Part shown: positions 27,376 to 49,721 of the stretch, piece after piece
Numbering within the stretch: position 1 is the first letter of the stretch
Layout of the letters: every line of letters begins with the position of its first letter
Source: Bacteroidales bacterium
GTDB taxonomy: Bacteria; Bacteroidota; Bacteroidia; Bacteroidales; UBA12077
Direction: 5' to 3'
NCBI GenBank assembly: GCA_028282585.1
Contig: JANQHR010000145.1
Coordinates: forward strand, 1 to 52,542
DNA: 52,542 nucleotides
Program-made: the position numbers and the translations under genes
Notes under the pieces: model-generated
What the model was told of the DNA's origin: nothing
The model's database searches: none
Seen by the model: only the letters and a program-made list of their open reading frames with translations

Positions 27376-27741
27376 ATGAATATACTTATTGGAATTTTTA
27401 TTGGAGGAGGATTAGGAAGTCTTGCCCGATTTGGAATCTCGAAATTAGTAACTTCAAATTTTAAGGATATAAATCCTGTTGGGACCTTAGCAGCGAATTT
27501 TATAAGCACATTTTTGTTAGGTGTTATTTTGTACCTTACCGCAGAAAGATTTGTAGTTTCTCCAAATATAAAAGCGTTATTGATTATAGGATTTTGTGGT
27601 GGATTTAGTACTTTTTCAACGTTTAGCTATGAAACTTTCGAGCTTATAAGATCTGGTAATTATTTTTTTGCTGTGGCAAATTTGTTAATAAGTATTTTCT
27701 TAGGTATTGGAGTTTTATTTATTTTAGCACGGAGTATATAA
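27376..27741 (+). CDS. crcB: Fluoride channel Fluc/CrcB
   Basis: GGGLGSLARF, GTLAAN, GFCGGFSTFSTF. Confidence 0.93.
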   Translation: MNILIGIFIGGGLGSLARFGISKLVTSNFKDINPVGTLAANFISTFLLGVILYLTAERFVVSPNIKALLIIGFCGGFSTFSTFSYETFELIRSGNYFFAVANLLISIFLGIGVLFILARSI

Positions 27742-27758
27742 TCAATTTCGTTGTTAAA

Positions 27759-29408
27759 ATGCAGCTAAAATCAGCACTTAAAATATCTGTCTTTTTAATA
27801 TTTTCATTTGTACAAATAAATAATTTATTTGCACAAAATCAATTTAAAAAACCACCAAAGCTTGTTGTAGGAATTGTTGTGGAGGAAATGAGGTATGAAA
27901 TGCTTCTTCGTTATTGGGATTCGTTTGGAGAAAATGGATTCAAAAAAATAATTGATGAAGGAGCATTTTGTACACAAACCTATCATAACTACTTAATTAC
28001 TCAAAATGGTGTGGGGCAAGCAAGTATCGCGACTGGAACCTATCCATCTTATCATGGCATTATATCCGATGTTTGGTACAATAGGCTTGCAGATGAAATA
28101 GTTGAATGTGCCGATCAGTCTAAATTTAATTTGATTGATGGTTTTCTATCAGTAGGAAATTACTCACCAGATCATATTTTAACATCAACATTAGGTGATG
28201 AACTTAAGTTAGCAACAAATGACAGCTCAAAAGTAATTTCAATTTCTTTAAATCCTGTTTCTTCTGTTATAGCGGGAGGGCAATTGGCTGACTATGCTTT
28301 TTGGTTTAACCATCATAATGGGGGCTGGATTACAGGAAATTATTATACAAACAGTCTCCCGGCCTGGGTTGAGCAATTTAATCTGAAAGGTTTTCAGGAT
28401 ATTTATATGAAAAAGAACTGGGCAAGCATGTATTCACTAACAAATAATTATAAAAAGAGCCTGCCCGATGATAGTGATTTTGAAATTGGTTTCAGAAATT
28501 ATCGTTATACTTTTCCCTATGACTTAACATATTTGAAAAATCGTTCCGGAAACTATAAATATTTAAAATATACGCCTTTTGGAAATACCTATACAAAGGA
28601 TTTCGCAGTTTCCGCAATAATAAATGAGGAATTAGGAAAAGATGAATATACGGATTTGTTATTAGTAAGTTTTGCTGCAACCCATTTTAGTGGAGAACTT
28701 TTTGGCCCCAGATCAGTTGAGATGGAAGATTTGTTCTTAAGGTTGGATTATGACATTGAACATTTTATTAGATTTTTAGATGATGAAATAGGATTAGAAA
28801 ATGTACTCTTATACTTAACGTCTGATCGGGGTGTTTCGGACGTTCCCGAATACTTAATTTCTAAAAAGCAAAATGCGGGTGTATTTGACGGGGAAAAATC
28901 TTTGACTTTACTCAACAGCTATCTAAGTATTCTCTATGAGGAAGGAGAGTGGGTTAAAACATATTTTTCCAGACAACTATATTTCAATCAAACGTTAATT
29001 GATGAATCAGGTATAGATTTATATGAAATACAAAACAAAGTAGCAGATTTTATGGTTCAGTTTAACGGGGTTGCTAATGCTTTGCCGGCCAGAACAATAA
29101 ACTCAACTAACTTTGAATCGGGCATTAATCAAAAAATTCAAAATAGCTTTCATCAAAAAAGATCCGGTGATGTGATCATAAATTTAGAACCTGGCTGGAT
29201 CGAGAAGAACGGATATGTTACTAAATCAGGATCGGGATATAATTATGATACTCATGTTCCTTTAATATGGTTAGGCTGGGGAATTAAAAATTCCAAAATT
29301 GATAGGCCAACAGAGGTAATAGATATTGCACCAACTATTTCCTGGATATTGAATATAACTGCTCCGAATGCTTCAATTGGCAAACCAATTTTTGAATTGA
29401 AGGAATAG
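27759..29408 (+). CDS. PafA-like alkaline phosphatase superfamily protein, active site degenerate
   Basis: PKLVVGIVV, TLGDELK, TPFGN, RSGDV, YDTHVPL, DIAPT scaffold; signal peptide. Confidence 0.85.
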   Translation: MQLKSALKISVFLIFSFVQINNLFAQNQFKKPPKLVVGIVVEEMRYEMLLRYWDSFGENGFKKIIDEGAFCTQTYHNYLITQNGVGQASIATGTYPSYHGIISDVWYNRLADEIVECADQSKFNLIDGFLSVGNYSPDHILTSTLGDELKLATNDSSKVISISLNPVSSVIAGGQLADYAFWFNHHNGGWITGNYYTNSLPAWVEQFNLKGFQDIYMKKNWASMYSLTNNYKKSLPDDSDFEIGFRNYRYTFPYDLTYLKNRSGNYKYLKYTPFGNTYTKDFAVSAIINEELGKDEYTDLLLVSFAATHFSGELFGPRSVEMEDLFLRLDYDIEHFIRFLDDEIGLENVLLYLTSDRGVSDVPEYLISKKQNAGVFDGEKSLTLLNSYLSILYEEGEWVKTYFSRQLYFNQTLIDESGIDLYEIQNKVADFMVQFNGVANALPARTINSTNFESGINQKIQNSFHQKRSGDVIINLEPGWIEKNGYVTKSGSGYNYDTHVPLIWLGWGIKNSKIDRPTEVIDIAPTISWILNITAPNASIGKPIFELKE

Positions 29409-29486: not shown

Positions 29487-29513
29487 AAAAAGCATCAGTT
29501 TCTACTGATGCTT
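29487..29513. terminator. Terminator between convergent genes
   Basis: aagcatcagt-ttct-actgatgctt with flanking A tract (U tract on - strand). Confidence 0.8.
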
Positions 29514-29549: not shown

Positions 29550-32501
29550 TTACTTGGTAAAAACAAATAACCTGCTATCTCTACTTAAGGTGATTGTTTT
29601 GTCAACAATCATACTTGGGGCTTCAATATTTTCATTGTTTGCCCTAATGGCTTTGCCAGTAATCAGAACTCCAATTTTATCTTCCAAATCTATATTACGC
29701 ACCTTTTTTGCAAGTATTAATTCACCGTTAGATAACATTTTTTGTATATCAGAGTGCTGCATTTTATTATAGGGTTTGTGTTCGGAAATAATATTTTCTG
29801 TTAGCCTAGGAGCAGCGATTTGCCATAATTTATCTTCTAATGTATGGTTATCATGAATAACTTGTTGCATACTTACCGAAGTTAAACGAAGCACTGTTAC
29901 AGGCGATTCTGCAGTTACTGTTGCTGTTCTTGGAACATTTGTTAATACTGCTATTTCGCCAATTACACTTCCTTTTCCCAATATATCGATAAGCTTTTTA
30001 TTTATTGTTACTTTAACCGATCCACGAGCAACGACGTATAAACCATCTACTTGCCCATGTTCCTTTATAATTTTTTCACCTACTGTATAATTTCTATGCT
30101 GGAATAAACTTACCACTTTATTAAACGAGGTTTTATCCAGTTCTTTTAACCACTGAATTTCCTGTAATAATTTAGCTTTTTCCGGTGGTTTAATTTCCGG
30201 AGGAGAATCAACCAGTTTCTTCATTCTTTCTTCGATGCTTTCGATCATTTTATATGCTTCGTCTGAACCAATTTGTCCCTTCTTTTGAAGCCTTTCAACA
30301 ATTTTAAGCTCAGTATTCAAATTAGAACGAATTGCCTGACGGGTTGCAATTGAGTCATAAATTTCGGGGAAAGTGTTTTTAAGGTTTCTTAAAAAGGTTA
30401 ATCCATGTATTCTGTTTTCATTAATTTCACTTTCTATAGTTGCAATATCTTGATCAATTGTTAATTCTTCTGTATCAGAACTAATAGCCATACCTTCTGC
30501 TAATTTTAATGTTTCATATTGAGCTTCAACAAACCCCCTGGCCGCATCATAACTATTTGCTAATCTTTCAATAAAGAATCTTTGTGATATCTTACCTAAA
30601 ATTGGTAATGATTGGAGTTTGCTTAAAAATTTAGGTGTTTGCCATAATTGTTCGAGATCTTTTCTCTCAGAAAGAGATATTTTTCCTTCTGAGTCAATTA
30701 TTTCATTGATAGCATCTGTTAAATTTCGCACGGCAATTGGGCCTAACAGTCCTTCTTTGAATTGATTCCAATAGCTACTTTTTTCTTTTTCCAGAACACG
30801 GCGTCTAGCTTCATAAAGACTGGCAAATTTTCCTTCTTGTAATACTATTTCAACATTTTCTGGTTCTTCAGGAAGATATGTTTTTACGCTATCCCAATTA
30901 GCTCTTCCGAGAAATCTATCGTTTTTAAGTTTTTCCATAGAGTTTTCAGCAGCTGTTCTTAGATAACTTTTAGCATTTAAGATCATTTTTTGCTTGGCCG
31001 GTGGAATACTTGTTAATCCTAACTTATTTAAAAGCGCTTTTATAGTAGTTGCATTTACAAGTAAAGTCAGGGTTACTATTCCGGCGGTATAAAACAAGAA
31101 CTGGTCACGAATATGTCTATCAATTGATTCTTCTCCTGCTACAATTAGCGCTAATGCCAAACCAATTGCCCCACGAAGAGCTCCCCACCATATAACATAA
31201 GCATTTTTTTTAGATAAACCATAACCTGCTTTTTTCATTACGGGGAAGAAAATTGTTATCACAATAGCTCGGACAACATGAATTCCTATGTATAATAAAA
31301 TAAGTACAACAAAATCGTTGGCTGTAAAAACTATATTATCTGATATAACAACTCCAACAATTAAAAAAATCAATGTATTTGCTATAAATGCAAAAAGCTC
31401 CCAGAATTCATGTAAGAAATGTTCTACCTCAGGACTGATTCTTGTTCTTCCTGTGCTAGCCATTAATAATCCAAGAGAAACTAAACCTAAAACTCCGGAA
31501 ACATGTAAGAAATGTTCTGCAATATAGAACGTCATATAAGCTGCAGCCACGATTACCGTTATTTCTACTAAAGCATCATTAAATACTTTTTTTACCCAGG
31601 CAATTATTATGTAACCAACAACAAGTCCAACCAGAATTCCACCAACTGCCACTCTTAAAAATTCAACAATAGGTGAAGCGTCAGAAGCAGTTCCCGTAAT
31701 CCCTAATAAGAGAACCATGAATATTACAATTGCAGTACCATCATTTAGCATGGATTCTCCTTCCACCAGTGTTCCAAGTTTTTTACTGGCTCCAAGTTCT
31801 TTTAAAAGTGAAACAACAGCAACCGGATCGGTAGCGCTAATTACTGTTCCAAAAAGCAATGCAATAGACAAGGTCCAAGTTGTAAGTCCGATACCTAAAG
31901 CTTTTATACCTAAAACTATGATAGCCGTTAATACTAATGCAACTATAATGCCCGGAACTGCGAGTATAAAAGCATTTACAGCAGTTTTTTTAAACGTATG
32001 AACATCCATTGCGAATGCGGCCTCAAATATTAATGTCGGAAGGAAAATGTATAAAATTAAATGTGGGTCAATTTTTCCTGCCCACCCGACAGCATCACTT
32101 ATAAAAGATGTGTTTAATTTTAATCCAATGATATGCCATTCTCCAAAATATCCAAGGCGCGTTAATGCTCCTAAGATTAATCCAATCAATAGTAGCGTAA
32201 CAGTATAAGGTAAAGGGCTTTTCTTGAGCCAATGCCTAGTTCCTGAACCAATAATTAAAGCAATTATAAGAAAGAAAAGGGGACTCATATTTCCTCCATG
32301 CCCTGATTCTTTATGCCCATTTGATTGTTTTTCTTCATGAATTGCATGTTCTATATCACCTTTTTCATGATGAATTGAGGTTTCCATTCCATCTACTGGA
32401 GTAGGTTTATCTTGTACATGCTTTTGAGCAAAAATATGGTTTTGTGAAAAACTTATGCTTAAGATTAAGAGCATAAGTAAATAACGAATAGGCTTTTTCA
32501 T
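29550..32501 (-). CDS. CPA1 Na+/H+ exchanger with long cytosolic helical domain and cyclic-nucleotide-binding domain (SOS1/SLC9C-like)
   Basis: FLPTLIFE, ATDPVAV, EGESMLNDG, LRGAIGLAL; CNBD GEIAVL...PRTATV. Confidence 0.9.
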   Translation of the reverse strand: MKKPIRYLLMLLILSISFSQNHIFAQKHVQDKPTPVDGMETSIHHEKGDIEHAIHEEKQSNGHKESGHGGNMSPLFFLIIALIIGSGTRHWLKKSPLPYTVTLLLIGLILGALTRLGYFGEWHIIGLKLNTSFISDAVGWAGKIDPHLILYIFLPTLIFEAAFAMDVHTFKKTAVNAFILAVPGIIVALVLTAIIVLGIKALGIGLTTWTLSIALLFGTVISATDPVAVVSLLKELGASKKLGTLVEGESMLNDGTAIVIFMVLLLGITGTASDASPIVEFLRVAVGGILVGLVVGYIIIAWVKKVFNDALVEITVIVAAAYMTFYIAEHFLHVSGVLGLVSLGLLMASTGRTRISPEVEHFLHEFWELFAFIANTLIFLIVGVVISDNIVFTANDFVVLILLYIGIHVVRAIVITIFFPVMKKAGYGLSKKNAYVIWWGALRGAIGLALALIVAGEESIDRHIRDQFLFYTAGIVTLTLLVNATTIKALLNKLGLTSIPPAKQKMILNAKSYLRTAAENSMEKLKNDRFLGRANWDSVKTYLPEEPENVEIVLQEGKFASLYEARRRVLEKEKSSYWNQFKEGLLGPIAVRNLTDAINEIIDSEGKISLSERKDLEQLWQTPKFLSKLQSLPILGKISQRFFIERLANSYDAARGFVEAQYETLKLAEGMAISSDTEELTIDQDIATIESEINENRIHGLTFLRNLKNTFPEIYDSIATRQAIRSNLNTELKIVERLQKKGQIGSDEAYKMIESIEERMKKLVDSPPEIKPPEKAKLLQEIQWLKELDKTSFNKVVSLFQHRNYTVGEKIIKEHGQVDGLYVVARGSVKVTINKKLIDILGKGSVIGEIAVLTNVPRTATVTAESPVTVLRLTSVSMQQVIHDNHTLEDKLWQIAAPRLTENIISEHKPYNKMQHSDIQKMLSNGELILAKKVRNIDLEDKIGVLITGKAIRANNENIEAPSMIVDKTITLSRDSRLFVFTK

Positions 32502-32682: not shown

Positions 32683-33249
32683 TTAATCCACCTGAATATG
32701 CCCCCAATTTTCACCTCGTCTTATCCTGTTTAATTGAGTGTGCGTTATTCCAAACTCTTTAGCTAATTTATATAGTTTGTTTTTTCCTCGTTTAAGTTTT
32801 TTCTTTAAACGTATAACGTCGGTTTCTGTTAACTTTGCATAATTAATGGCACCACGTTTATAGTTTGGATTGATCTTCTGATGGGCAAACATAGTTTCCT
32901 GTGTTACCCATTTTAAATTATCCGTATGGTTGTTACTTTTATCAAAGTCAAGATGTATAACGTAATTTTGAAGATCATTATCCCTAGGAATAAAAGTTTC
33001 AGCAACTAATTTATGTATATACTTTGTTGTTCTTTTTTCAGTTTCTAGCTTAATATTTAAGATTTTGTAACCTTTTAAGGTAGAGCCTTTTATAATAGAG
33101 CCTTCAATTTTATTTACCTTATAACTTTTAATTCTACCATAATTAGATATGGCATACTTTTCGTTAGCAGCCATCCCATTAATTTGCAATGGTTTCCAAA
33201 CTTCACCTATAAGTTCTTGATGTACGGTGTTCAAATTTTGATTGTTCAT
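32683..33249 (-). CDS. NUMOD4 + HNH-like + HTH protein
   Basis: EVWKP, YAISNYGRIKS (NUMOD4); HKLVAETF...HLDFDKSNN..NLKWVT; AKLTE...LAKEFGI HTH. Confidence 0.82.
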   Translation of the reverse strand: MNNQNLNTVHQELIGEVWKPLQINGMAANEKYAISNYGRIKSYKVNKIEGSIIKGSTLKGYKILNIKLETEKRTTKYIHKLVAETFIPRDNDLQNYVIHLDFDKSNNHTDNLKWVTQETMFAHQKINPNYKRGAINYAKLTETDVIRLKKKLKRGKNKLYKLAKEFGITHTQLNRIRRGENWGHIQVD

Positions 33250-42667: not shown

Positions 42668-43672
42668 TTAAATATTTTCAAGTAAATTTTCCATCGCAGG
42701 AGTCATCTTAACCTGATAATTGCCTTTTTCATCGTTATAAACAAAGTAAGCTTCCAGTTCCGGGATTTTCATTACTACATCATAAGCTTTTTCTAACCCC
42801 ATTACTAAAAAGGCTGTAGCAAATGCATCAGCAGTAATACAATCATTTCCAATTACAGTTACACTTAATAAAGAATGGTTAACCGAGTATCCTGTTTTTG
42901 GGTTAATTGTGTGAGAATATTTGACGCCATCTCGTATATAGAATTTACGATAGTTACCAGAAGTAGCTAATGATTTATTCGAAAGTTTGATAATAGCTTG
43001 TAAATTTTCTCCTGGAACGTTATTATTATCAAAAGGTTTATCAATTCCAATTTTCCATACTTTATGTTTTCGATTAACACCTTTTGCTTTTACCTCTCCG
43101 CCAATTTCAACTAGATAGTTATTTACACCGCGTTCTTCGAGAAACTGAGCAACTATATCTACTGAATATCCTTGAGCAATAGCATTCATATTTATTTTTA
43201 CTCGGTCATCATGTTTGATAATAACAGAGTCTTTTATATAGATTAAGTCAAAACCTACAAATTCAAGGATGCTATCAATCTTTGCATTCGTTATGTTCTC
43301 TTTATTCTTAAAACCAAACCCCCAGGCATTAACCAATGGAGCAACAGTAATGTCAAAATATCCATTTGTGGCATTGTATACTTCATCCGCTTTTTTAAAT
43401 ACAGTTCTTAAATATTCATCTGTTTTATCCGATTCGTTTTTATTAATTTTTGAAATAACAGAATACGGATTATAGGTAGAAAGAGATGAGTCAAACTCTG
43501 CTAATAAGTAATCAATTTCTTTTTTATAGTTAATACTATCGGGGCTTTCATAAGTAATACTATAAGTAGTTCCTTGGGCAAAACCTCCAAATCCGACATA
43601 ATCTTTTGAAGGGTTTAAATTACAACTTGTTAAAATAACAGTGATAAGGATAAGTAATAATAAATTTCTCAT
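42668..43672 (-). CDS. apbE: FAD:protein FMN transferase ApbE
   Basis: Lipobox, QGTTY, FDITV.PL..WGFG, VEIGGE, ATSGNY, HTINP.TG, ADA.AT. Confidence 0.93.
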   Translation of the reverse strand: MRNLLLLILITVILTSCNLNPSKDYVGFGGFAQGTTYSITYESPDSINYKKEIDYLLAEFDSSLSTYNPYSVISKINKNESDKTDEYLRTVFKKADEVYNATNGYFDITVAPLVNAWGFGFKNKENITNAKIDSILEFVGFDLIYIKDSVIIKHDDRVKINMNAIAQGYSVDIVAQFLEERGVNNYLVEIGGEVKAKGVNRKHKVWKIGIDKPFDNNNVPGENLQAIIKLSNKSLATSGNYRKFYIRDGVKYSHTINPKTGYSVNHSLLSVTVIGNDCITADAFATAFLVMGLEKAYDVVMKIPELEAYFVYNDEKGNYQVKMTPAMENLLENI

Positions 43673-43760
43673 GGCGAGTTTAATTAGTTTTTTAATGAGT
43701 AATACGAATTTACTAAGAATTTAAAGTATAAATCAACTTTATTGCAAGATTTTTGACATA

Positions 43761-43791
43761 AAAAAGCCGGAAAGCTTTTTGCAATCCGGCC
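43761..43791 (-). terminator. Terminator after nqrF
   Basis: aaaaagccgga...tccggc hairpin with U tract on - strand. Confidence 0.7.
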
Positions 43792-43809
43792 TGATATGTA
43801 TTGATTATT

Positions 43810-45072
43810 TTAACCACCAAAATCGTCAAATGCTAACATTTCATCAGGTATTCCTAAGTCGTAGATCATTTTCTGAACTGCATCATTCATCATAGGAGGC
43901 CCACATAAGTAGTATTCAATCTCTTCCGGTTCTTCATGTTTACTTAAATATTCATTGTAAACCACCTGATGAATAAATCCTGTTAAACCATCCCACTTAT
44001 CTTCTTCTTTAGGCTCAGATAAAGCCAGATAGAATTTGAAATTAGGAAACTTCTTTTCAATTTCTCTAAATTCATCTTCATAAAAAACTTCCCTCTTTGA
44101 TCTTGCACCATACCAATATGTGACTTTCCTTCCAGTTTTTAAGGTGTGGAAAAGATGGAATATATGAGAACGTAATGGGGCCATTCCAGCACCGCCACCA
44201 ATATACATCATCTCACGGTCAGTTTCCTTAATAAAGAATTCACCATATGGACCTGAAATTGTTATTTTATCACCTGGTTTCAATGAAAAAATATAAGATG
44301 AGCAAACTCCTGGATTAACATTCTGGAATGCACCTTTTGACCTATCCCAAGGTGGAGTGGCAATACGAATGTTCAATTTAACTATATTCCCTTCTTTAGG
44401 GTAGTTTGCCATTGAGTATGCTCTGTATGTAGGTTCTGTGTTTTTCATCTTTAAATCCCACATATTGAACTGATCCCATTCATCCCGGAATTCTTCTTCA
44501 ACAGATATATCTTTAAAGTTGACTTCAACCTTAGGTACATCAATTTGAATGTACCCGCCAGATTGGAAATCAAGATCTTCTCCTTCGGGTAGCTTAACCA
44601 CAAATTCCTTGATAAAAGTTGCAACATTTTTATTGGAAATAACTTCGCATTCCCATTTTTTGATTCCCATAACTTCTTCCGGGATACCCAATTTCATGTC
44701 GTTACGAACTTTCACCTGGCAACCCAACCGCCAGTAATTTTGTGCTTCTTTTCTGGTAAAAAAATCGGTTTCTGTTGGAAGTATGCTTCCACCACCTTCA
44801 AAGACCTGACATTTACACATAGCGCAAGTACCACCACCACCACAAGCGGATGGTAAAAATATTTCGCTATTAGATAAAGTTGCTAGTAGAGTGCTACCAG
44901 GGCTAACTTCTAATTCTTTTTCTTCATTGATAGTTAACTTAACATTTCCCTGCGGGATAAGTTTTTTTCTTGCATATAGAAGAACCAGTACTAATGCAAG
45001 AATAATTGTTAAGAATATTGCAATACTTAACAGAATAACCGTAAAATTTGATGTTAGTAGGATCATTCTCAA
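43810..45072 (-). CDS. nqrF: Na+-NQR subunit F
   Basis: [37 protein letters not shown]. Confidence 0.96.
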
Positions 45073-45087
45073 AGTTCTTTATAATAT

Positions 45088-45705
45088 TTATAATTTAATT
45101 CCCATGAATCCCATAAAAGCCATTCCCATTAAACCTGTAATAATAAATGTAATACCAAGGCCTTTTAGAGGATCTGGAATATTCGAATATCTTATTTTTT
45201 CTCTAATTGCTGCAATACCAACAATTGCAAGGAACCAACCTAAACCTGAACCAAGCCCGAAAGCAGTTGCTTCTGCAATGTTATTATACTCGCGCTCTTG
45301 CATAAATAACGAGCCACCTAAAATTGCACAGTTTACCGCAATAAGTGGTAAAAATATGCCTAATGAGTTATACAATGTTGGTGAGAATTTCTCAATAATC
45401 ATTTCTACCAATTGTACCATTGATGCAATAACCGCAATAAATATAATGAAACTCAAGAAACTTAAATCAACATCAATAAACTTCGGGCTTAACCAAACTA
45501 AAGCACCTTCTTTAAGCAAGAAATTATGAATTAAATAATCTACCGGAACAGTAATTCCTAATACAAAAATTACAGCTATTCCCAAACCTGTGGAAGTTTT
45601 TACCGTTTTTGATACTGCTAAATATGAACACATACCTAAAAAATATGCAAATATCATATTATCAATAAAAACTGACTTGACAAATATATTTACTAAGTTT
45701 TCCAT
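45088..45705 (-). CDS. nqrE: Na+-NQR subunit E
   Basis: [23 protein letters not shown]. Confidence 0.96.
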
Positions 45706-45729
45706 TTTTCTAATTTTTGAGATTAAGAA

Positions 45730-46377
45730 TTAGTTTGATTCAACCAGTTTTCTATTCTTAGCGCGTTGTACCCAAATAATTACACCAACAACAATTAATG
45801 CCATTGGAGGAAGAATCATAAAACCGTTATTTTCATAACCAAAATCGTAAAAACCTTCCGGTATTACCTGGTATCCCCAGATAGTCCCCGAGCCTAAGAA
45901 TTCTCTAAAAAACGCTACAATGATAAGAATTACACCATATCCGGCAGCATTTCCAAGTCCATCAAGAAAAGCGGGCCAAGGTTTATTACTTAATGCAAAA
46001 GCTTCCAAACGTCCCATGATAATACAATTTGTAATAATCAAGCCAACAAAAACAGATAATTGCTTACTAATATCGAATAAGAAAGCTTTTAAGAATTGGT
46101 CAACTAGGATTACCATTGCTGCAATTACCACCAATTGAACAATAATTCTGATTCTTGGGGGAACCGTTTTTCTTAATAATGATATTACTACATTAGATAC
46201 TGCCATAACAAATACCACCGATACTGCCATAACAAATGCCGGTTTCACTTTAACAGTAATAGCTAAAGCCGAACAAATTCCCAGAACCTGAACAGTAATA
46301 GGATTACTGTCGTTTAGAGGTTCTGTTAATAATTTGATATTCTTGCCCGAAAAGAGAGGTTCTTTTTCTTCGCTCAT
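45730..46377 (-). CDS. nqrD: Na+-NQR subunit D
   Basis: LGICSALA, GLIITNCIIMGR.EA. Confidence 0.96.
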   Translation of the reverse strand: MSEEKEPLFSGKNIKLLTEPLNDSNPITVQVLGICSALAITVKVKPAFVMAVSVVFVMAVSNVVISLLRKTVPPRIRIIVQLVVIAAMVILVDQFLKAFLFDISKQLSVFVGLIITNCIIMGRLEAFALSNKPWPAFLDGLGNAAGYGVILIIVAFFREFLGSGTIWGYQVIPEGFYDFGYENNGFMILPPMALIVVGVIIWVQRAKNRKLVESN

Positions 46378-47087
46378 TATATGTTATTTTTTAATGTTTT
46401 AAAATAAGGTTCATAACTACTTAAGCAGTCTTTAAGCATATCATCAACACCATTGCTGGTAATTGTGCCACCAGAAACTCCGTCTACTTCGTACTTAGAA
46501 TTAGGGTCTGCTGTTCCACCTTTCACTACACTAACTGAAACAAACTTTCCTGTTTCATTAAAAATCTGCTTTCCAAAAAACTGCTGCTGGAATTCGGCTG
46601 TTTCAATTTCCGCACCTAAACCGGGAGTTTCAGCCTTGTGCGCAAAATTTGCACCGAAAATAGTTGAAAGGTCATTCTCTAACGAAACATACCCCCAAAC
46701 CGGGCCCCATAGCCCTTTTCCATAAACCGGCAATATGTATTGCTTAGAATCTTCTAAAGAACTAACAAATATAGGAAGGCTCCTTTCTTCAAGAGGTTTT
46801 GATAACTCCTTTTTCATGTCAACTTTAAAAGCATCAACATCTTCCTTTAATTCTCCTTTAGAATCTACAGCATAACTTTCTATGATATATTTATCATAAA
46901 GTTCTTCTGCATTTTGAGCTGTACTTTCAATATTAATTGAAGTAAGAATATTTTGCTTTTTGTTAATTTCTACATTTCTTTTTTGAAACGGTTGTAATGT
47001 CATCGCCGCAACAGAAAGTATAGCTGCAACAGATACAACCATTATTGAAGAAAAAATGAAAATATACGTGTTACTATATGATCTCAT
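46377..47087 (-). CDS. nqrC: Na+-NQR subunit C
   Basis: GKGLWG, ETPGLG, FMN site DGVSGGT. Confidence 0.95.
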   Translation of the reverse strand: MRSYSNTYIFIFSSIMVVSVAAILSVAAMTLQPFQKRNVEINKKQNILTSINIESTAQNAEELYDKYIIESYAVDSKGELKEDVDAFKVDMKKELSKPLEERSLPIFVSSLEDSKQYILPVYGKGLWGPVWGYVSLENDLSTIFGANFAHKAETPGLGAEIETAEFQQQFFGKQIFNETGKFVSVSVVKGGTADPNSKYEVDGVSGGTITSNGVDDMLKDCLSSYEPYFKTLKNNI

Positions 47088-47097
47088 ATCTATATTT

Positions 47098-48282
47098 TTA
47101 AGCTTTTATTTTTGCTCGTTTTAATCGTTTTTTGATGTTATTTTCTATTACATAGTGATCGATGAGTGGAGCAAATACATTCATTAAAAGTATTGCTAAC
47201 ATTACTCCTTCAGGATATGCAGGATTAACCACGCGAATTAAAATTGCAAGAAATCCAATTAAGAAACCATAAATAATTTTACCTTTAGGAGTTTGTGAAG
47301 CAGAAACCGGATCTGTTGCCATAAATACAGCTCCAAATGCAAATCCTCCTAACATTAAATGCTGCCATGCCGGTACACTGAAAAACGCCTGAGCTGTTTC
47401 CGAAAGCCCTTCAGCAGTTGAAAATGCATTCAGCAATAACCCCATTACTAAACCTCCAACAAAAGTAGAGATCATAATACGCGCACTACCAACTCCAGTG
47501 AATAGCAATATTGCTGCTCCGATTAAAATAGCTAGAGTTGATGTTTCTCCAATTGAGCCTAGAATTGTTCCAAAGAACATTTCAGATAGTTGAGGTAGTT
47601 TATCGATATTTCCTGCTGCAGCTTCTGCTAAAGGTGTAGCGCCTGAAAAAGTATCAACTATTCCTTCGCCTTGGATCATACCATGGGTCCAAACTTCATC
47701 TCCGGACATATAGGAGGGATACGCAAAAAACAAGAAAGCTCTTGCCGTTAAAGCAGGATTTAAAATGTTCATTCCTGTTCCACCAAAAACTTCTTTGCCA
47801 ATAATCACAGCAAACGCCGTAGCTAAAGCTACCATCCATAAAGGAACATCAACTGGAAGTACCAAAGGTATTAACATTCCTGATACCAGGAATCCTTCAT
47901 TAACTTCATGCCCTCTGAATTGTGCAAAAGCAAATTCAATTCCTAAACCAACTCCGTACGAAACTACTATTATTGGAAGTACTCTAAGGAAACCCAACCA
48001 AAATATTTCAAATAATGTACCTTCTTGGCCTGTGGCCTTAAAATGGTGGAATCCTATATTCCACATTCCAAATAAGATAGTTGGAACCAACGCAAACACG
48101 ACGATAGACATTGTTCTTTTCATGTCGACAGAATCGCGAATATGTGCTCCTTTGGTAGTTACTTTATCTGGAACAAACATGAAAGTTTCAAAAGCATCAA
48201 ATGTAGAATGCAGCTTTTCAAATTTTCCTCCTTTTTCAAAGTGAGGTTTTAATTTATCTAAATATCTTCTTAACGATTTCAT
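47098..48282 (-). CDS. nqrB: Na+-NQR subunit B
   Basis: HIRDSVDMKRTM, KEVFGGTG, FMN site SGAT, GETS, FMATDPV. Confidence 0.96.
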   Translation of the reverse strand: MKSLRRYLDKLKPHFEKGGKFEKLHSTFDAFETFMFVPDKVTTKGAHIRDSVDMKRTMSIVVFALVPTILFGMWNIGFHHFKATGQEGTLFEIFWLGFLRVLPIIVVSYGVGLGIEFAFAQFRGHEVNEGFLVSGMLIPLVLPVDVPLWMVALATAFAVIIGKEVFGGTGMNILNPALTARAFLFFAYPSYMSGDEVWTHGMIQGEGIVDTFSGATPLAEAAAGNIDKLPQLSEMFFGTILGSIGETSTLAILIGAAILLFTGVGSARIMISTFVGGLVMGLLLNAFSTAEGLSETAQAFFSVPAWQHLMLGGFAFGAVFMATDPVSASQTPKGKIIYGFLIGFLAILIRVVNPAYPEGVMLAILLMNVFAPLIDHYVIENNIKKRLKRAKIKA

Positions 48283-48287
48283 TAATA

Positions 48288-48364
48288 TTTTAGCTTTTAG
48301 CTTTTAGCTTTTGGCTTTTAGTGAATAAAGGATCAAATTCACTAATAGTTGGAAGCCGGTAGCT
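48288..48364. repeat. Heptamer tandem repeat plus hairpin in nqrA-nqrB spacer
   Basis: (ttttagc)x3, ttttggc, ttttagt, then stem tagtgaat...attcacta. Confidence 0.8.
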
Positions 48365-48368
48365 TAAT

Positions 48369-49721
48369 TTAACTCATTTCCTTTCTCATCAAATCAAGTC
48401 CATCTCTAATAATCGATTGAACTTCGGTTTTTGAAGTACAAACATATTCGCAAAGGGCAAAATCTTCTTCGTCAACTTCATAAATACCCAATTGTTCCAT
48501 TTTATCAATATCTTCAACCATAATTGCTTTTATCAGTTGAACCGGGTAAATATCCATTGGAAATACTTTTTCATACTCACCAGTTACTACATAAGCTCTA
48601 GGGCCCCCGTGAAAGTTGGTGTCCAGACGATACTTTTTTCCTGGGATTAACCATGATAAAAGTGTACGAGAAGCAGTATATTTCTTAAAACCAGGTGCTG
48701 CCCAACCAAAAAATTCGTGATACTTACCCTCCGGAATAATAGTTATTTGATTGTCGTAGAAACCAATATAACCATCATCTTCTATTTTTGATCCTGTTAA
48801 AACATTCCCGCTTATATATCTTAATTCTCCATCATTAACATTATTTTTTACAAGATTTTTAATAGAAGCTCCATTTAATACTTTAAAATATTTTGGGTTC
48901 TTTACTTCAGATCCGGTTAAAGCAACAATCTTAGTTGCGTCGTAAATACCTTTTTCAAAAAACCTTCCGATTGCAGCAATTTCTTGAGGATACGTATACC
49001 AAACAATATCCCCTTTATTGATCGGATCAATTTTGTTAATTTGTACTCCTACATTACCAGAAGGATGTGGACCTGTGAAATAGTTTAACTGAACATTTTT
49101 TGCTTTTGTGTAAGTATCAGCTGGAGGATAGTCAGCGTTCAAATTCAGATGAATCTTCCCATTAGTTAATTTTGATAAAACATTAATTCCTTTCTGGAAA
49201 CACTCAACACAGTCCTTAACCATATAATCCATATCAGGAGCAAGAGGGGCACTGTCAAAAGCTGAAATAAAAATTGCTTTTGGAATATCATTTGGATTTG
49301 CAATTGTAGAATATGGCCTTTGTCTTAAAGATGGCCAAAGTCCACTATTTTGTAAAGCTTCAACTATTTCTTCTCTTGAAAGATCTTTAGGATCGGCAAC
49401 CTTAAATTGTTCATATTCAATTATTGCGTCGGCTTTTACAACCACCTCAAGAATAGCTCTTCGTTCACCTCGATTAATTTCAACAACTTCGCCGCTTACG
49501 GGAGAAACAAATTGCACTTCCGGTTGAAATTTGTCAAAGAAAAGTGGTGTTCCGGCTTTTACATTATCGCCAACTTTTACAACTAATTTAGGGCGAATAC
49601 CTATGAAATCTGTTGGCTTTATTGCATAAAGATCTGCCTGATCTGCCTTTTTCATTATCTTTTCGGCAGTACCAAGCAGGCTTATATTTAAGCCTTTTTT
49701 GATTTTTATAACTTTAGACAT
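48369..49721 (-). CDS. nqrA: Na+-NQR subunit A
   Basis: IKKGLNI, GPHPSGNVG, ISGNVLTG, EVDEEDFALCEYVCTSK. Confidence 0.96.
   Translation of the reverse strand: MSKVIKIKKGLNISLLGTAEKIMKKADQADLYAIKPTDFIGIRPKLVVKVGDNVKAGTPLFFDKFQPEVQFVSPVSGEVVEINRGERRAILEVVVKADAIIEYEQFKVADPKDLSREEIVEALQNSGLWPSLRQRPYSTIANPNDIPKAIFISAFDSAPLAPDMDYMVKDCVECFQKGINVLSKLTNGKIHLNLNADYPPADTYTKAKNVQLNYFTGPHPSGNVGVQINKIDPINKGDIVWYTYPQEIAAIGRFFEKGIYDATKIVALTGSEVKNPKYFKVLNGASIKNLVKNNVNDGELRYISGNVLTGSKIEDDGYIGFYDNQITIIPEGKYHEFFGWAAPGFKKYTASRTLLSWLIPGKKYRLDTNFHGGPRAYVVTGEYEKVFPMDIYPVQLIKAIMVEDIDKMEQLGIYEVDEEDFALCEYVCTSKTEVQSIIRDGLDLMRKEMS

Follow-up and report, generated by a model that had tools for sequence, protein, structure and literature searches.

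The window, that is, the whole stretch of 52,542 nucleotides from a Bacteroidales bacterium that was analysed, carries at positions 29550..32501(-) a gene for a bacterial relative of two eukaryotic exchangers, SOS1 of plants and SLC9C1 of sperm, complete with the full architecture of that family. We put at roughly 0.6 the probability that this protein works as a Na+(Li+)/H+ exchanger in which a cytosolic restraint is relieved by a cyclic nucleotide, most likely cAMP. Homology to the two eukaryotic exchangers extends along nearly the entire chain, the residues of the transport site and of the nucleotide pocket are conserved, and the same genome encodes class III cyclases; transport and its control by a cyclic nucleotide would be the functional counterpart of these features.

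The gene is a single open reading frame with an ATG start, 983 codons and a stop, and it has its own terminator-like hairpin (10 pairs and a T run, 29490..29513(-)), situated 37 bases past the stop. [quoted passage not shown] An earlier note, made from the sequence alone, had described this layout, and all the motifs it quoted are found in the translation; Pfam and an AlphaFold (AF2) model of the 983-residue protein (mean pLDDT 86.2, pTM 0.78) agree with it. Ahead of the membrane domain, residues 1–26 (MKKPIRYLLMLLILSISFSQNHIFAQ; 32424..32501(-)) form a hydrophobic, signal-peptide-like N-terminus, modelled as a helix at 2–17, which may be cleaved; among relatives, a comparable extension is confined to Bacteroidota. 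Residues 27–70 (32292..32423(-)) are His/Glu-rich and disordered (pLDDT <50 over 19–68), and from CPA1 topology this stretch is probably periplasmic. In relatives, too, the stretch before TM1 is rich in His, and it ends there in a conserved H-x-x-N.

A search of PDB sequences returned the sea-urchin exchanger SpSLC9C1 as the top match (E 1.5e-148), over residues 55–539 (388 bits for the membrane domain), 558–623 and 633–969. Arabidopsis SOS1 (AtSOS1) followed with E 7.7e-123 over one continuous stretch (70–949 against 32–911), and NHE1 was matched at just 1.2e-23. With the model as Foldseek query, at least the 30 top matches were all SLC9C1 or SOS1 (E 1.8e-46 to ~1e-41), with NHE1 at ~1e-13. 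Structural alignment with VIA-align paired 842 residues with AtSOS1 (model 70–983 against 32–972, Z 51.1) and ~800–860 residues with SLC9C1 (model 71–983 against 74–1191). Since NHE1 also reaches a Z of ~42 through its membrane domain alone, it is the aligned length, rather than Z, that carries the structural argument. The global rmsd to the solved structures amounts to 14–17 Å because the domains are placed differently in the monomer model.

The layout of the Bacteroidales protein is shared with both eukaryotic families, each of which has been elaborated in its own way. In common with SLC9C1 (PDB codes 8pcz, 8otq, 8xq8 and others) it has the CPA1 domain, a CNBD of the G-E...R-x-A type, the terminal beta domain, and the coupling helices that lie on both sides of the point at which the voltage sensor is inserted. 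The S1–S4 voltage sensor itself (residues ~612–791 of SLC9C1) has no counterpart: as had been claimed, no hydrophobic TM-like window is found after about residue 494 and no Ion_trans match was returned by Pfam. Among the relatives scanned, Ion_trans was present in 0 of 9 bacterial and 3 of 7 eukaryote-type proteins. The Bacteroidales protein differs from SLC9C1 further in its signal-like N-terminus and His/Glu-rich stretch, and in falling outside the eukaryotic clade. SOS1/NHX7 (7y3e, 8jd9, 8iwo) has the same order of membrane domain, alpha-helical domain, CNBD-like domain and beta domain, likewise with no voltage sensor. The last residue, 983, corresponds to about residue 972 of SOS1, the chain of which comprises 1146 residues; the Bacteroidales protein thus stops directly after the beta domain and lacks the SOS1 autoinhibitory tail of ~170 residues.

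Ordinary NhaP proteins (TIGR00831 a_cpa1; MjNhaP1, PaNhaP) share the NhaA-fold CPA1 membrane domain and the ND motif, but the longest reading frames at NhaP loci of the same class encode 410–551 residues, with no such tail, and against the TIGR00831 equivalog model the protein scores 182.9 bits, below the NCBIfam cut-off of 279.6. Bacterial membrane proteins that are alike in principle, in having a C-terminal cytosolic ligand sensor, include the CNBD-gated channels MloK1 and SthK and the RCK-gated CPA2 protein KefC; the channels, however, have unrelated membrane domains, KefC has an unrelated RCK/KTN sensor, and none has the alpha-helical and beta domains. In KefC the cytosolic domain inhibits through a TM7 linker helix, a parallel drawn for the sperm exchanger in PMC10620092.

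The alpha-helical cytosolic domain (coupling helices) occupies residues 497–770 (30192..31013(-)), with helices spanning 501–765 in the model. The translation contains EARRRVLEKEKSSYWNQFKEG (from residue 563), SYDAARGF, FPEIYDSIATRQAIRSNLN and RMKKLVDSPPEIKPP, the helical motifs quoted beforehand. Pfam gave nothing significant for residues 500–800; a DUF7219 match at 732–762 (E 0.14, under the cut-off) was dismissed as noise. By HMMER the domain aligns continuously with SOS1, and with SLC9C1 at 558–623 and 633–770, and the model fits SLC9C1 over 71–766 (8xqa_A, 74–944) with 4.3 Å rmsd for 661 residues at 40% identity. The helices therefore align with both eukaryotic exchangers, and the claim of an SOS1/SLC9C layout, as opposed to a fusion of an ordinary NhaP protein with a CNBD, is supported by sequence, predicted structure and phylogeny alike. 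In the register counted from the HMMER alignment, K761 (30219..30221(-)) is aligned with Lys939 of SpSLC9C1, the residue of helix ICH7 described as touching TM7' in the autoinhibited state (PMC10620092). This position is Lys in 53 of the 66 rows of our alignment A1, which is weighted towards close kin.

The CNBD is composed of residues 771–910 (29772..30191(-)) and is recognised by Pfam as cNMP_binding (PF00027, 803–884; E 2.3e-15, 56.7 bits versus a cut-off of 27.5). In the model a beta-roll (801–874) is followed by the B/C helices to residue 905. The phosphate-binding cassette GEIAVLTNVPRTATV (residues 848–862) lies at 29916..29960(-), exactly where the earlier note had placed it, and follows the canonical pattern G-E-x-A...R-[ST]-A throughout (G848, E849, A851, R858, T859, A860); the Gly between beta2 and beta3 is the invariant G827. 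The ligand pocket is intact, and nucleotide binding is predicted. Residues 911–983 (29553..29771(-)) form a second beta-roll-like domain with no cassette, whose strands (927–982) are modelled with pLDDT ~88. This domain is included in the whole-model alignments, which run to residue 972 of SOS1 and 1191 of SLC9C1, and the HMMER alignment with SLC9C1 reaches residue 969 of the query.

An intact fold is no guarantee of ligand gating, as the two eukaryotic relatives indicate. The CNBD-like domain of SOS1, which has Tyr820 at the cassette position where the Bacteroidales protein keeps Arg, is said not to bind nucleotide and yet to be essential (PMC10372031), and cAMP alone is reported not to activate SpSLC9C1 but only to shift its voltage dependence (PMC10620091). 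The protein could accordingly be a genuine exchanger in which the CNBD serves as a structural or dimerisation module, either binding no nucleotide or binding it with no effect on transport, any regulation coming from pH, lipids or partner proteins. The family evidently tolerates loss of the pocket: the full G-E..R-x-A pocket is seen in just 10 of the 20 carriers from the same order, 3 others keep the Arg with the Glu or Ala lost, 5 lack the Arg, 2 have no CNBD match in the stretch fetched, and a short form of the exchanger with no CNBD at all occurs in gut Bacteroides. On the other hand, every cassette residue conforms to the canonical pattern in the Bacteroidales protein and in 30 of 30 sampled close relatives, and likewise in 18 of 18 members of a second, distant bacterial group; the cassette Arg is found in 64 of the 66 rows of the kin-weighted A1 and in all 18 of the distant group. 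This argues for selection on the pocket where it is kept and, together with the cyclases in the genome, leads us to regard a purely structural CNBD as unlikely.

A genome search for cyclases, as had been proposed, returned five PF00211 class III domains. The Lys of the EKIKT[IV]GDAY motif is present in four of the five and the Asp of YDI[WF]G in three; this Lys/Asp pair is typical of adenylyl cyclases, and the presence of five such domains makes cAMP the likelier ligand. All 10 same-order carriers whose cassette is intact have a cyclase, against 110/180 non-carriers. Cyclases are present also in 8 of the 10 carriers lacking the full cassette; for carriers as a whole the comparison is 18/20 against 110/180 (one-sided Fisher p 0.007, uncorrected for kinship). 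No cyclase or phosphodiesterase gene adjoins the exchanger in 80 related loci, and a tblastn search of these loci with the genome's own cyclase proteins found no cyclase, the sole match being a receiver domain. The neighbours in the window (ychF, crcB, an AP-superfamily protein, NUMOD4, PcrB and others) recur in 3–5 of the 80 loci, all of them from kin of ~80% identity, and no operon-level clue emerged across the 80.

Regulation by cGMP, or by another nucleotide in place of cAMP, would be suggested by T859, the Thr directly after the cassette Arg (conserved as Thr in 43/66 rows of A1); cGMP-dependent kinases have Thr there as well, and the best PDB matches to the CNBD alone are Plasmodium PKG chains (E ~1.4e-23). 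The earlier note had regarded the Arg-Thr pair as compatible with cGMP binding. This hint carries little weight given the adenylyl-type cyclases and the behaviour of SpSLC9C1, which binds both nucleotides and prefers cAMP (2.4 uM, versus 9.3 uM for cGMP; PMC10620091). Moreover, in bacteria the CNBDs attached to mechanosensitive channels have Arg-Thr-Ala as their consensus too (PMC2246266). A ligand other than cAMP is, in our estimation, distinctly improbable.

The exchanger domain itself comprises 13 helices in residues 71–496 (31014..32291(-)). Pfam matches residues 80–493 to Na_H_Exchanger (PF00999, E 2.5e-58), and the modelled domain superposes on the SOS1 membrane domain (8jda_A) with 1.9 Å rmsd for 413 residues. 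The unwound part of TM4 carries the ion-site motif A223-T224-D225-P226 (31824..31835(-)), seen in the translation as SATDPVAV, with A223, D225 and P226 conserved in 66/66 and T224 in 65/66 rows of A1. The sequence EGESMLND supplies E249, S250, N253 and D254; of these, E249 and N253-D254 (31740..31757(-)), with R411 on TM10, make up the CPA1 electroneutral motif in the rules of PMC6181914. All four residues, R411 and R443 are each invariant (66/66). By those rules the ion-site residues fit an electroneutral CPA1 protein of Na+ type, and exchange activity is predicted from the motifs.

Exchange of K+ (or NH4+) for H+, as in the K+-specific NhaP-II clade of CPA1, is a slightly fainter prospect than a different ligand. 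Sequence gives no certain ion specificity, and NCBIfam models for K+/H+ antiporters do match weakly (E 2e-23, far under their cut-off), but the TM4 motif is A-T-D-P, with a non-polar first residue and Pro in fourth place, against the S-T-D-A of K+-specific proteins (PMC6181914), and SOS1 and SLC9C1, the nearest relatives to have been characterised, exchange Na+ for H+.

The gene is patchily distributed: among other genomes, it is carried by 4 of 400 from the phylum and 20 of 200 from the order. Relatives are spread over Bacteroidota, Verrucomicrobiota, Planctomycetota, Myxococcota, Desulfobacterota, Gemmatimonadota, Gammaproteobacteria, Dadabacteria and Margulisiibacteriota, and about 2,260 sequence clusters match at E <1e-30. 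A cultured Novipirellula strain is one of the carriers whose cassette is intact. Trees were calculated (IQ-TREE) and rooted at first with the genome's own CPA2 proteins; these proved too distant to serve as root, and six NhaP-type CPA1 proteins took their place. The eukaryote-type rows all fall into one clade, with no bacterial row among them (support 99 with 66 rows; 100 and 99 with 45 rows), and the Bacteroidales protein groups with Bacteroidota sequences outside it. Of the two origins proposed beforehand, a relative of the SLC9C/SOS1 lineage that lacks the voltage sensor therefore fits, and horizontal acquisition from eukaryotes does not. The gene did not come recently from a eukaryote: acquisition of an SLC9C or SOS1 gene minus its sensor or tail might account for the very high similarity to the sea-urchin membrane domain and for the patchy spread, but it is at odds with a family that is found across bacterial phyla and that the one eukaryotic clade does not include, nor is the GC content around the gene (0.33–0.35) different from that of the remainder of the window, and we consider it very improbable.

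The bacterial proteins could conceivably represent the ancestral, minimal architecture, from which eukaryotes took the complete protein (membrane, alpha-helical, CNBD and beta domains) once; the voltage sensor of SLC9C would be a later addition, as would the kinase-controlled tail of SOS1, where the pocket was lost. On this view the Bacteroidales protein would be a secondary-active transporter for which cAMP is the direct and sole switch. We offer this proposal tentatively and think it somewhat doubtful. In an AU test a single clade of the 43 bacterial long and short forms was not rejected (p 0.164), which reduces the nesting of eukaryotes within bacteria to a possibility.

Regarding the mechanism of a nucleotide-relieved exchanger, the protein would most likely be homodimeric and electroneutral, by analogy with its solved relatives. 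The cytosolic helices would hold back the transport domain, with K761 at the place of the locking Lys939 of SLC9C1. Once a cyclic nucleotide is bound by the CNBD (cAMP from the class III cyclases of the same cell is the likeliest candidate), the cytosolic assembly may loosen and turnover may rise. The window also contains, as had been noted, an nqrA-F and apbE cluster (42668..49721(-)) for Na+-NQR. With this enzyme as the primary pump, second-messenger control could extend to how the Na+ and H+ gradients are converted into one another, and hence to cytoplasmic pH and Na+ load.

No description of bacterial SOS1/SLC9C-like proteins was found in the searchable literature, and a 2020 review states that the combination of exchanger and CNBD is absent from bacteria (PMC7573149). 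That record is corrected here, as the combination is found across many bacterial phyla. According to PMC10620092, no transporter other than SLC9C1 is known to be under the control of voltage-sensing domains. The complete set of cytoplasmic control domains, until now described just for plant SOS1 and sperm SLC9C1, is here seen in a bacterium.

Salt tolerance in plants depends centrally on SOS1, and sperm cannot function without SLC9C1; as large eukaryotic membrane proteins, the two are difficult to handle. With the whole cytoplasmic module, an intact pocket and no voltage sensor, the Bacteroidales protein offers a simple bacterial model of the family: in 983 residues and with no extra sensor, it would allow the control exerted by a CNBD and coupling helices over an elevator-type exchanger to be studied directly. 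If the ancestral proposal is true, it would be a bacterial counterpart for carriers, a place that MloK1 and SthK hold for CNG and HCN channels. For the organisms themselves, the findings suggest that some bacteria put Na+/H+ exchange under the control of cAMP alongside Na+-NQR.

The exchanger is encoded by a single long open reading frame in the window (29550–32501, minus strand; 983 aa). Its translation contains every motif quoted in the earlier note, with the cassette GEIAVLTNVPRTATV (29916–29960) found as described at residues 848–862. [quoted passage not shown] The score against the NCBIfam NhaP equivalog (182.9 bits) is under the cut-off of 279.6, and the protein is therefore not an ordinary NhaP.

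A phmmer search against all PDB chains returned the sea-urchin sperm exchanger SLC9C1 as the top match (E 1.5e-148), in three stretches of chain 8otq_A (query 55–539, 558–623 and 633–969 on chain residues 59–526, 574–638 and 819–1170). The Arabidopsis Na+/H+ antiporter SOS1 was second (E 7.7e-123), with one unbroken stretch (query 70–949 on 32–911), and rice SOS1 was matched over query residues 75–966 (chain 12–908). NHE1 reached only E 1.2e-23, through the membrane domain alone. A helical region of about 270 residues and the C-terminal part can thus be aligned with both SLC9C1 and SOS1, an alignment on which the earlier note had made its proposal depend. The main claim of the earlier note's interpretation, that the exchanger is related to the SLC9C1/SOS1-type regulated exchangers, is supported.

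An AlphaFold2 model from an alignment of 66 bacterial sequences (mean pLDDT 86.2, pTM 0.78, weak only at residues 19–68 and 678–681) is composed of membrane helices up to residue 494, cytosolic helices (residues 501–765), a CNBD beta-roll (801–874, with helices to 905) and a terminal beta domain, the beta-CTD (927–982). The last of these corresponds to what was noted earlier as a short degenerate beta-roll; Kalienkova et al. describe the beta-CTD as a CNBD-like roll without the C-helix and cassette (PMC10620091). The top ranks from Foldseek were SLC9C1 and SOS1 entries only (E 1.8e-46 to about 1e-41), with NHE1 and NHE3 (about 1e-13) and MjNhaP1 (3e-9) at lower ranks. VIA-align paired 842 residues with AtSOS1 (model 70–983, chain 32–972, Z 51.1) and about 800–860 with SLC9C1 (model 71–983, chain 74–1191); as NHE1 attains a Z of about 42 from the membrane domain alone, the argument rests on how long the alignment is and what range it spans, and not on Z. 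The membrane domain and helices superpose on chain 8xqa_A with 4.3 Å rmsd (661 residues, 40% identity) and the membrane domain alone on SOS1 with 1.9 Å (413 residues). The whole-chain rmsd to the solved structures is 14–17 Å, because the domains are placed differently in the monomer model and the solved dimers.

SLC9C1 carries a voltage sensor at residues of about 612–791, for which the exchanger has no counterpart in the sequence alignment. No hydrophobic window of transmembrane strength follows residue 494 or so, and the Pfam Ion_trans profile matched neither the exchanger nor any of nine scanned bacterial relatives, bearing out the earlier remark that no voltage-sensor segment is visible. 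SOS1 has an autoinhibitory tail beyond its beta-CTD; the exchanger ends at this domain and so lacks the tail as well. Ion_trans is present in three of seven scanned eukaryote-type relatives, from Triparma (P0149), Chromosphaera perkinsii (P0158) and Tubulanus (P0171), together with Na_H_Exchanger and cNMP_binding. SLC9C-type exchangers with a voltage-sensing domain (VSD) thus occur in a stramenopile and an ichthyosporean, in contrast to a statement that VSD-bearing sNHE is confined to Metazoa (PMC6660944).

The canonical pocket residues of the CNBD are all present (G848, E849, A851, R858, T859 and A860). In the alignment of 66 bacterial sequences the cassette Arg is retained in 64, and the Glu and the Ala in 63 each; the cassette is intact in all 30 close relatives sampled from the 120 matches listed (57–88% identity). 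Since this alignment is weighted to close kin, the CNBD stretch was taken from all 20 carrier genomes of the same order: ten have the full G-E..R-x-A, three keep the Arg and have lost the Glu or Ala, five have lost the Arg, and two gave no CNBD match within the stretch fetched. In a second alignment the pocket is intact in all 18 rows of group B, which is bacterial and distant, in 7/12 of a group A, 15/45 eukaryote-type rows and 0/5 of a gammaproteobacterial group with proteins of about 820 aa (one row of which is from Margulisiibacteriota), and the CNBD is absent from all eight short forms. The pocket has thus been kept in the exchanger's own lineage and in other phyla and has decayed repeatedly elsewhere, as in plant SOS1.

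The residues of the transport site (A223, D225, P226, E249, S250, N253, D254, R411 and R443) are invariant in the alignment of 66, and T224 is found in 65. According to Masrati et al., Glu-Asn-Asp on TM5 with an Arg on TM10 is the electroneutral CPA1 signature, and a TM4 motif with a non-polar first position marks the Na+ type, the K+-specific CPA1 motif being S-T-D-A (PMC6181914). The A-T-D-P of the exchanger fits a predicted Na+ type.

A genome search for cyclases, suggested in the earlier note, identified five class III cyclase domains above the Pfam cut-off, and 16 CNBD matches, in the 4.89 Mb genome (98% complete). Substrate choice in class III cyclases follows a residue pair, Lys/Asp for ATP and Glu/Cys for GTP. 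The motif EKIKT[IV]GDAY occurs in four of the cyclase reading frames and YDI[WF]G in three, and by the Lys/Asp rule we take the domains to be adenylyl cyclases, which would make cAMP the likelier ligand. By eye, two adenylyl-cyclase-type domains (on contigs C44 and C167, loci L001 and L004) are followed by a region with HD-like motifs, and a third has a receiver and a sensor-like region fused to it. The Arg-Thr pair proposed to be compatible with cGMP is present; it is no strong argument for that nucleotide, as Arg-Thr-Ala is also the consensus of the bacterial CNBDs found on mechanosensitive channels (PMC2246266). SpSLC9C1 has affinities of 2.4 µM for cAMP and 9.3 µM for cGMP (PMC10620091). 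A cyclase was found in 18/20 same-order carriers versus 110/180 non-carriers (one-sided Fisher p 0.007, kinship ignored), and in all ten carriers whose cassette is intact and eight of the other ten; in one of the two cyclase-free carriers (G434) Gln replaces the cassette Arg. As a sign of a cAMP link this co-occurrence is suggestive only.

With the helical region alone (residues 500–790) as query, matches were found in 4 of a sample of 400 other genomes of the phylum, one of them weak, and in 20 of 200 sampled from the order. An exhaustive profile-free search returned 2,260 clusters at E < 1e-30. Named carriers belong to Bacteroidales, Flavobacteriales, Ignavibacteriaceae, Kapabacteria, Dadabacteria, Margulisiibacteriota, Opitutales, Planctomycetota (including cultured Novipirellula), Polyangiaceae, Desulfobacterota, Gemmatimonadota and several gammaproteobacterial genera. 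The cultured planctomycete Novipirellula sp. SH528 (L062, complete genome) has a 985-codon open frame with the cassette GEIALLTGEPRSA and is a possible experimental host.

Shorter forms also occur. Gut Bacteroides, Parabacteroides and Phocaeicola carry proteins of about 680–730 aa that match only residues of about 72–763, comprising the membrane and helical domains without CNBD or beta-CTD (loci L044, L047–L050, L052–L055, L057, L059–L061, L063, L067 and L088; proteins P0146, P0159 and others); in the tree, the exchanger's group has five of these rows as its sister. Gammaproteobacterial forms of about 810–840 aa, from Agarivorans, Pseudoalteromonas, Vibrio salinus and Agaribacterium (P0147, P0161, P0212 and P0253; L051, L058 and L068), have a CNBD-like region without the cassette, and Pfam detected no CNBD in the two scanned.

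The earlier note had also considered horizontal acquisition, and the trees do not bear out a transfer from a eukaryote into Bacteroidales: the eukaryote-type rows form one separate clade, and the exchanger falls among Bacteroidota sequences, within a starred set of 15 rows. This clade was recovered by FastTree on full-length sequences (66 rows, support 99), by FastTree on 405 membrane-domain columns (45 rows, support 100) and by IQ-TREE with LG+G4 on the same columns (45 rows, support 99). Organism names were available for nine of 20 rows looked up in this long-protein clade, all eukaryotes (Triparma, Tubulanus, two from Chromosphaera, two from Diplonema, Erythranthe, Entosiphon and Artemidia). 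Six NhaP-type proteins of the same class served to root both membrane-domain trees, in which the eukaryotic clade is nested among bacterial groups. An AU test in which the 43 bacterial rows were forced together did not reject that arrangement (p 0.164, log-likelihood difference 29.7), so the best tree favours a bacterial origin for the eukaryotic family without demonstrating it.

The exchanger gene looks monocistronic, with a 10-pair hairpin and T run 37 bases 3' of its stop and 181 bases between its start and the upstream gene. Its neighbours are unrelated housekeeping genes, common only to kin of about 80% identity. Directly upstream is a 188-aa protein (32683–33249, minus strand) with a NUMOD4 motif, which occurs in homing-endonuclease-like proteins; it is kept in four of five syntenic loci. 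Convergent with the exchanger (27376–29408, plus strand) are a CrcB fluoride channel gene and, following it, a gene for a 549-aa secreted protein of the alkaline-phosphatase superfamily (Pfam Phosphodiest), with a nucleotide pyrophosphatase-type fold and not that of a cNMP phosphodiesterase. A complete Na+-NQR set lies 10 kb away (nqrA-F and apbE; 42668–49721, minus strand), comprising NqrA, NqrB-type, FMN-binding NqrC-type, two Rnf-Nqr subunits and an NqrF-type reductase, followed by the ApbE flavin transferase. No other CPA1 protein turned up in the genome; the remaining PF00999 matches look CPA2-like.

The residues before TM1 (32292–32501, minus strand) form a signal-peptide-like helix and then a His/Glu-rich disordered stretch, a combination seen in the Bacteroidota group only. 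Group B proteins start M-H-H-G-P-E, six residues ahead of TM1; a His immediately ahead of TM1 recurs, and SpSLC9C1 is likewise His/Asp-rich there. About 45 hydrophilic residues of the extension would sit in the periplasm, in keeping with the N-out topology that 13-helix CPA1 proteins have, and may act as a pH or metal sensor.

The coupling helices of SpSLC9C1 keep its transport domain locked, and Lys939 on helix ICH7 contacts TM7' of the partner. With cAMP the cytosolic assembly becomes looser and the dimer contact between the beta-CTDs is lost; cAMP by itself is insufficient and shifts the voltage dependence (PMC10620092, PMC10620091). K761 occupies the position of Lys939 (register counted from the alignment), and a Lys is found there in 53 of the 66 sequences. 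As the exchanger has neither a voltage sensor nor a phosphorylated tail, the CNBD is its sole recognisable input, and we propose that the cytosolic assembly would autoinhibit the exchanger and that cAMP would relieve this state. We infer the direction of the cAMP effect, the dimer, the ion and the ligand alike.

The two-domain fusion as such is already on record, since databases carry relatives under the label 'NhaP-type antiporter/CRP-like cAMP-binding protein'. In the open literature searched, no description was found of bacterial proteins with the whole SOS1/SLC9C cytosolic module. A passage in Isayenkov et al. 2020 calls the pairing of exchanger and CNBD 'not present in bacteria' (PMC7573149), the trees of Chanroj et al. 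2012 were built from sequences whose C-tails had been trimmed (PMC3355601), and for Romero and Nishigaki 2019, whose survey was confined to eukaryotes, SOS1 is the homologue that lacks a VSD (PMC6660944). A term search of SOS1 and SLC9C1 structure papers turned up no mention of full-length relatives in bacteria. The earlier observation as a whole is confirmed: the exchanger is a bacterial version of the regulated SOS1/SLC9C-type exchanger, without VSD or tail and with an intact pocket, whose function we so far only infer. It is clearly interesting both as a model system and for the question of how the SOS1/SLC9C family arose.
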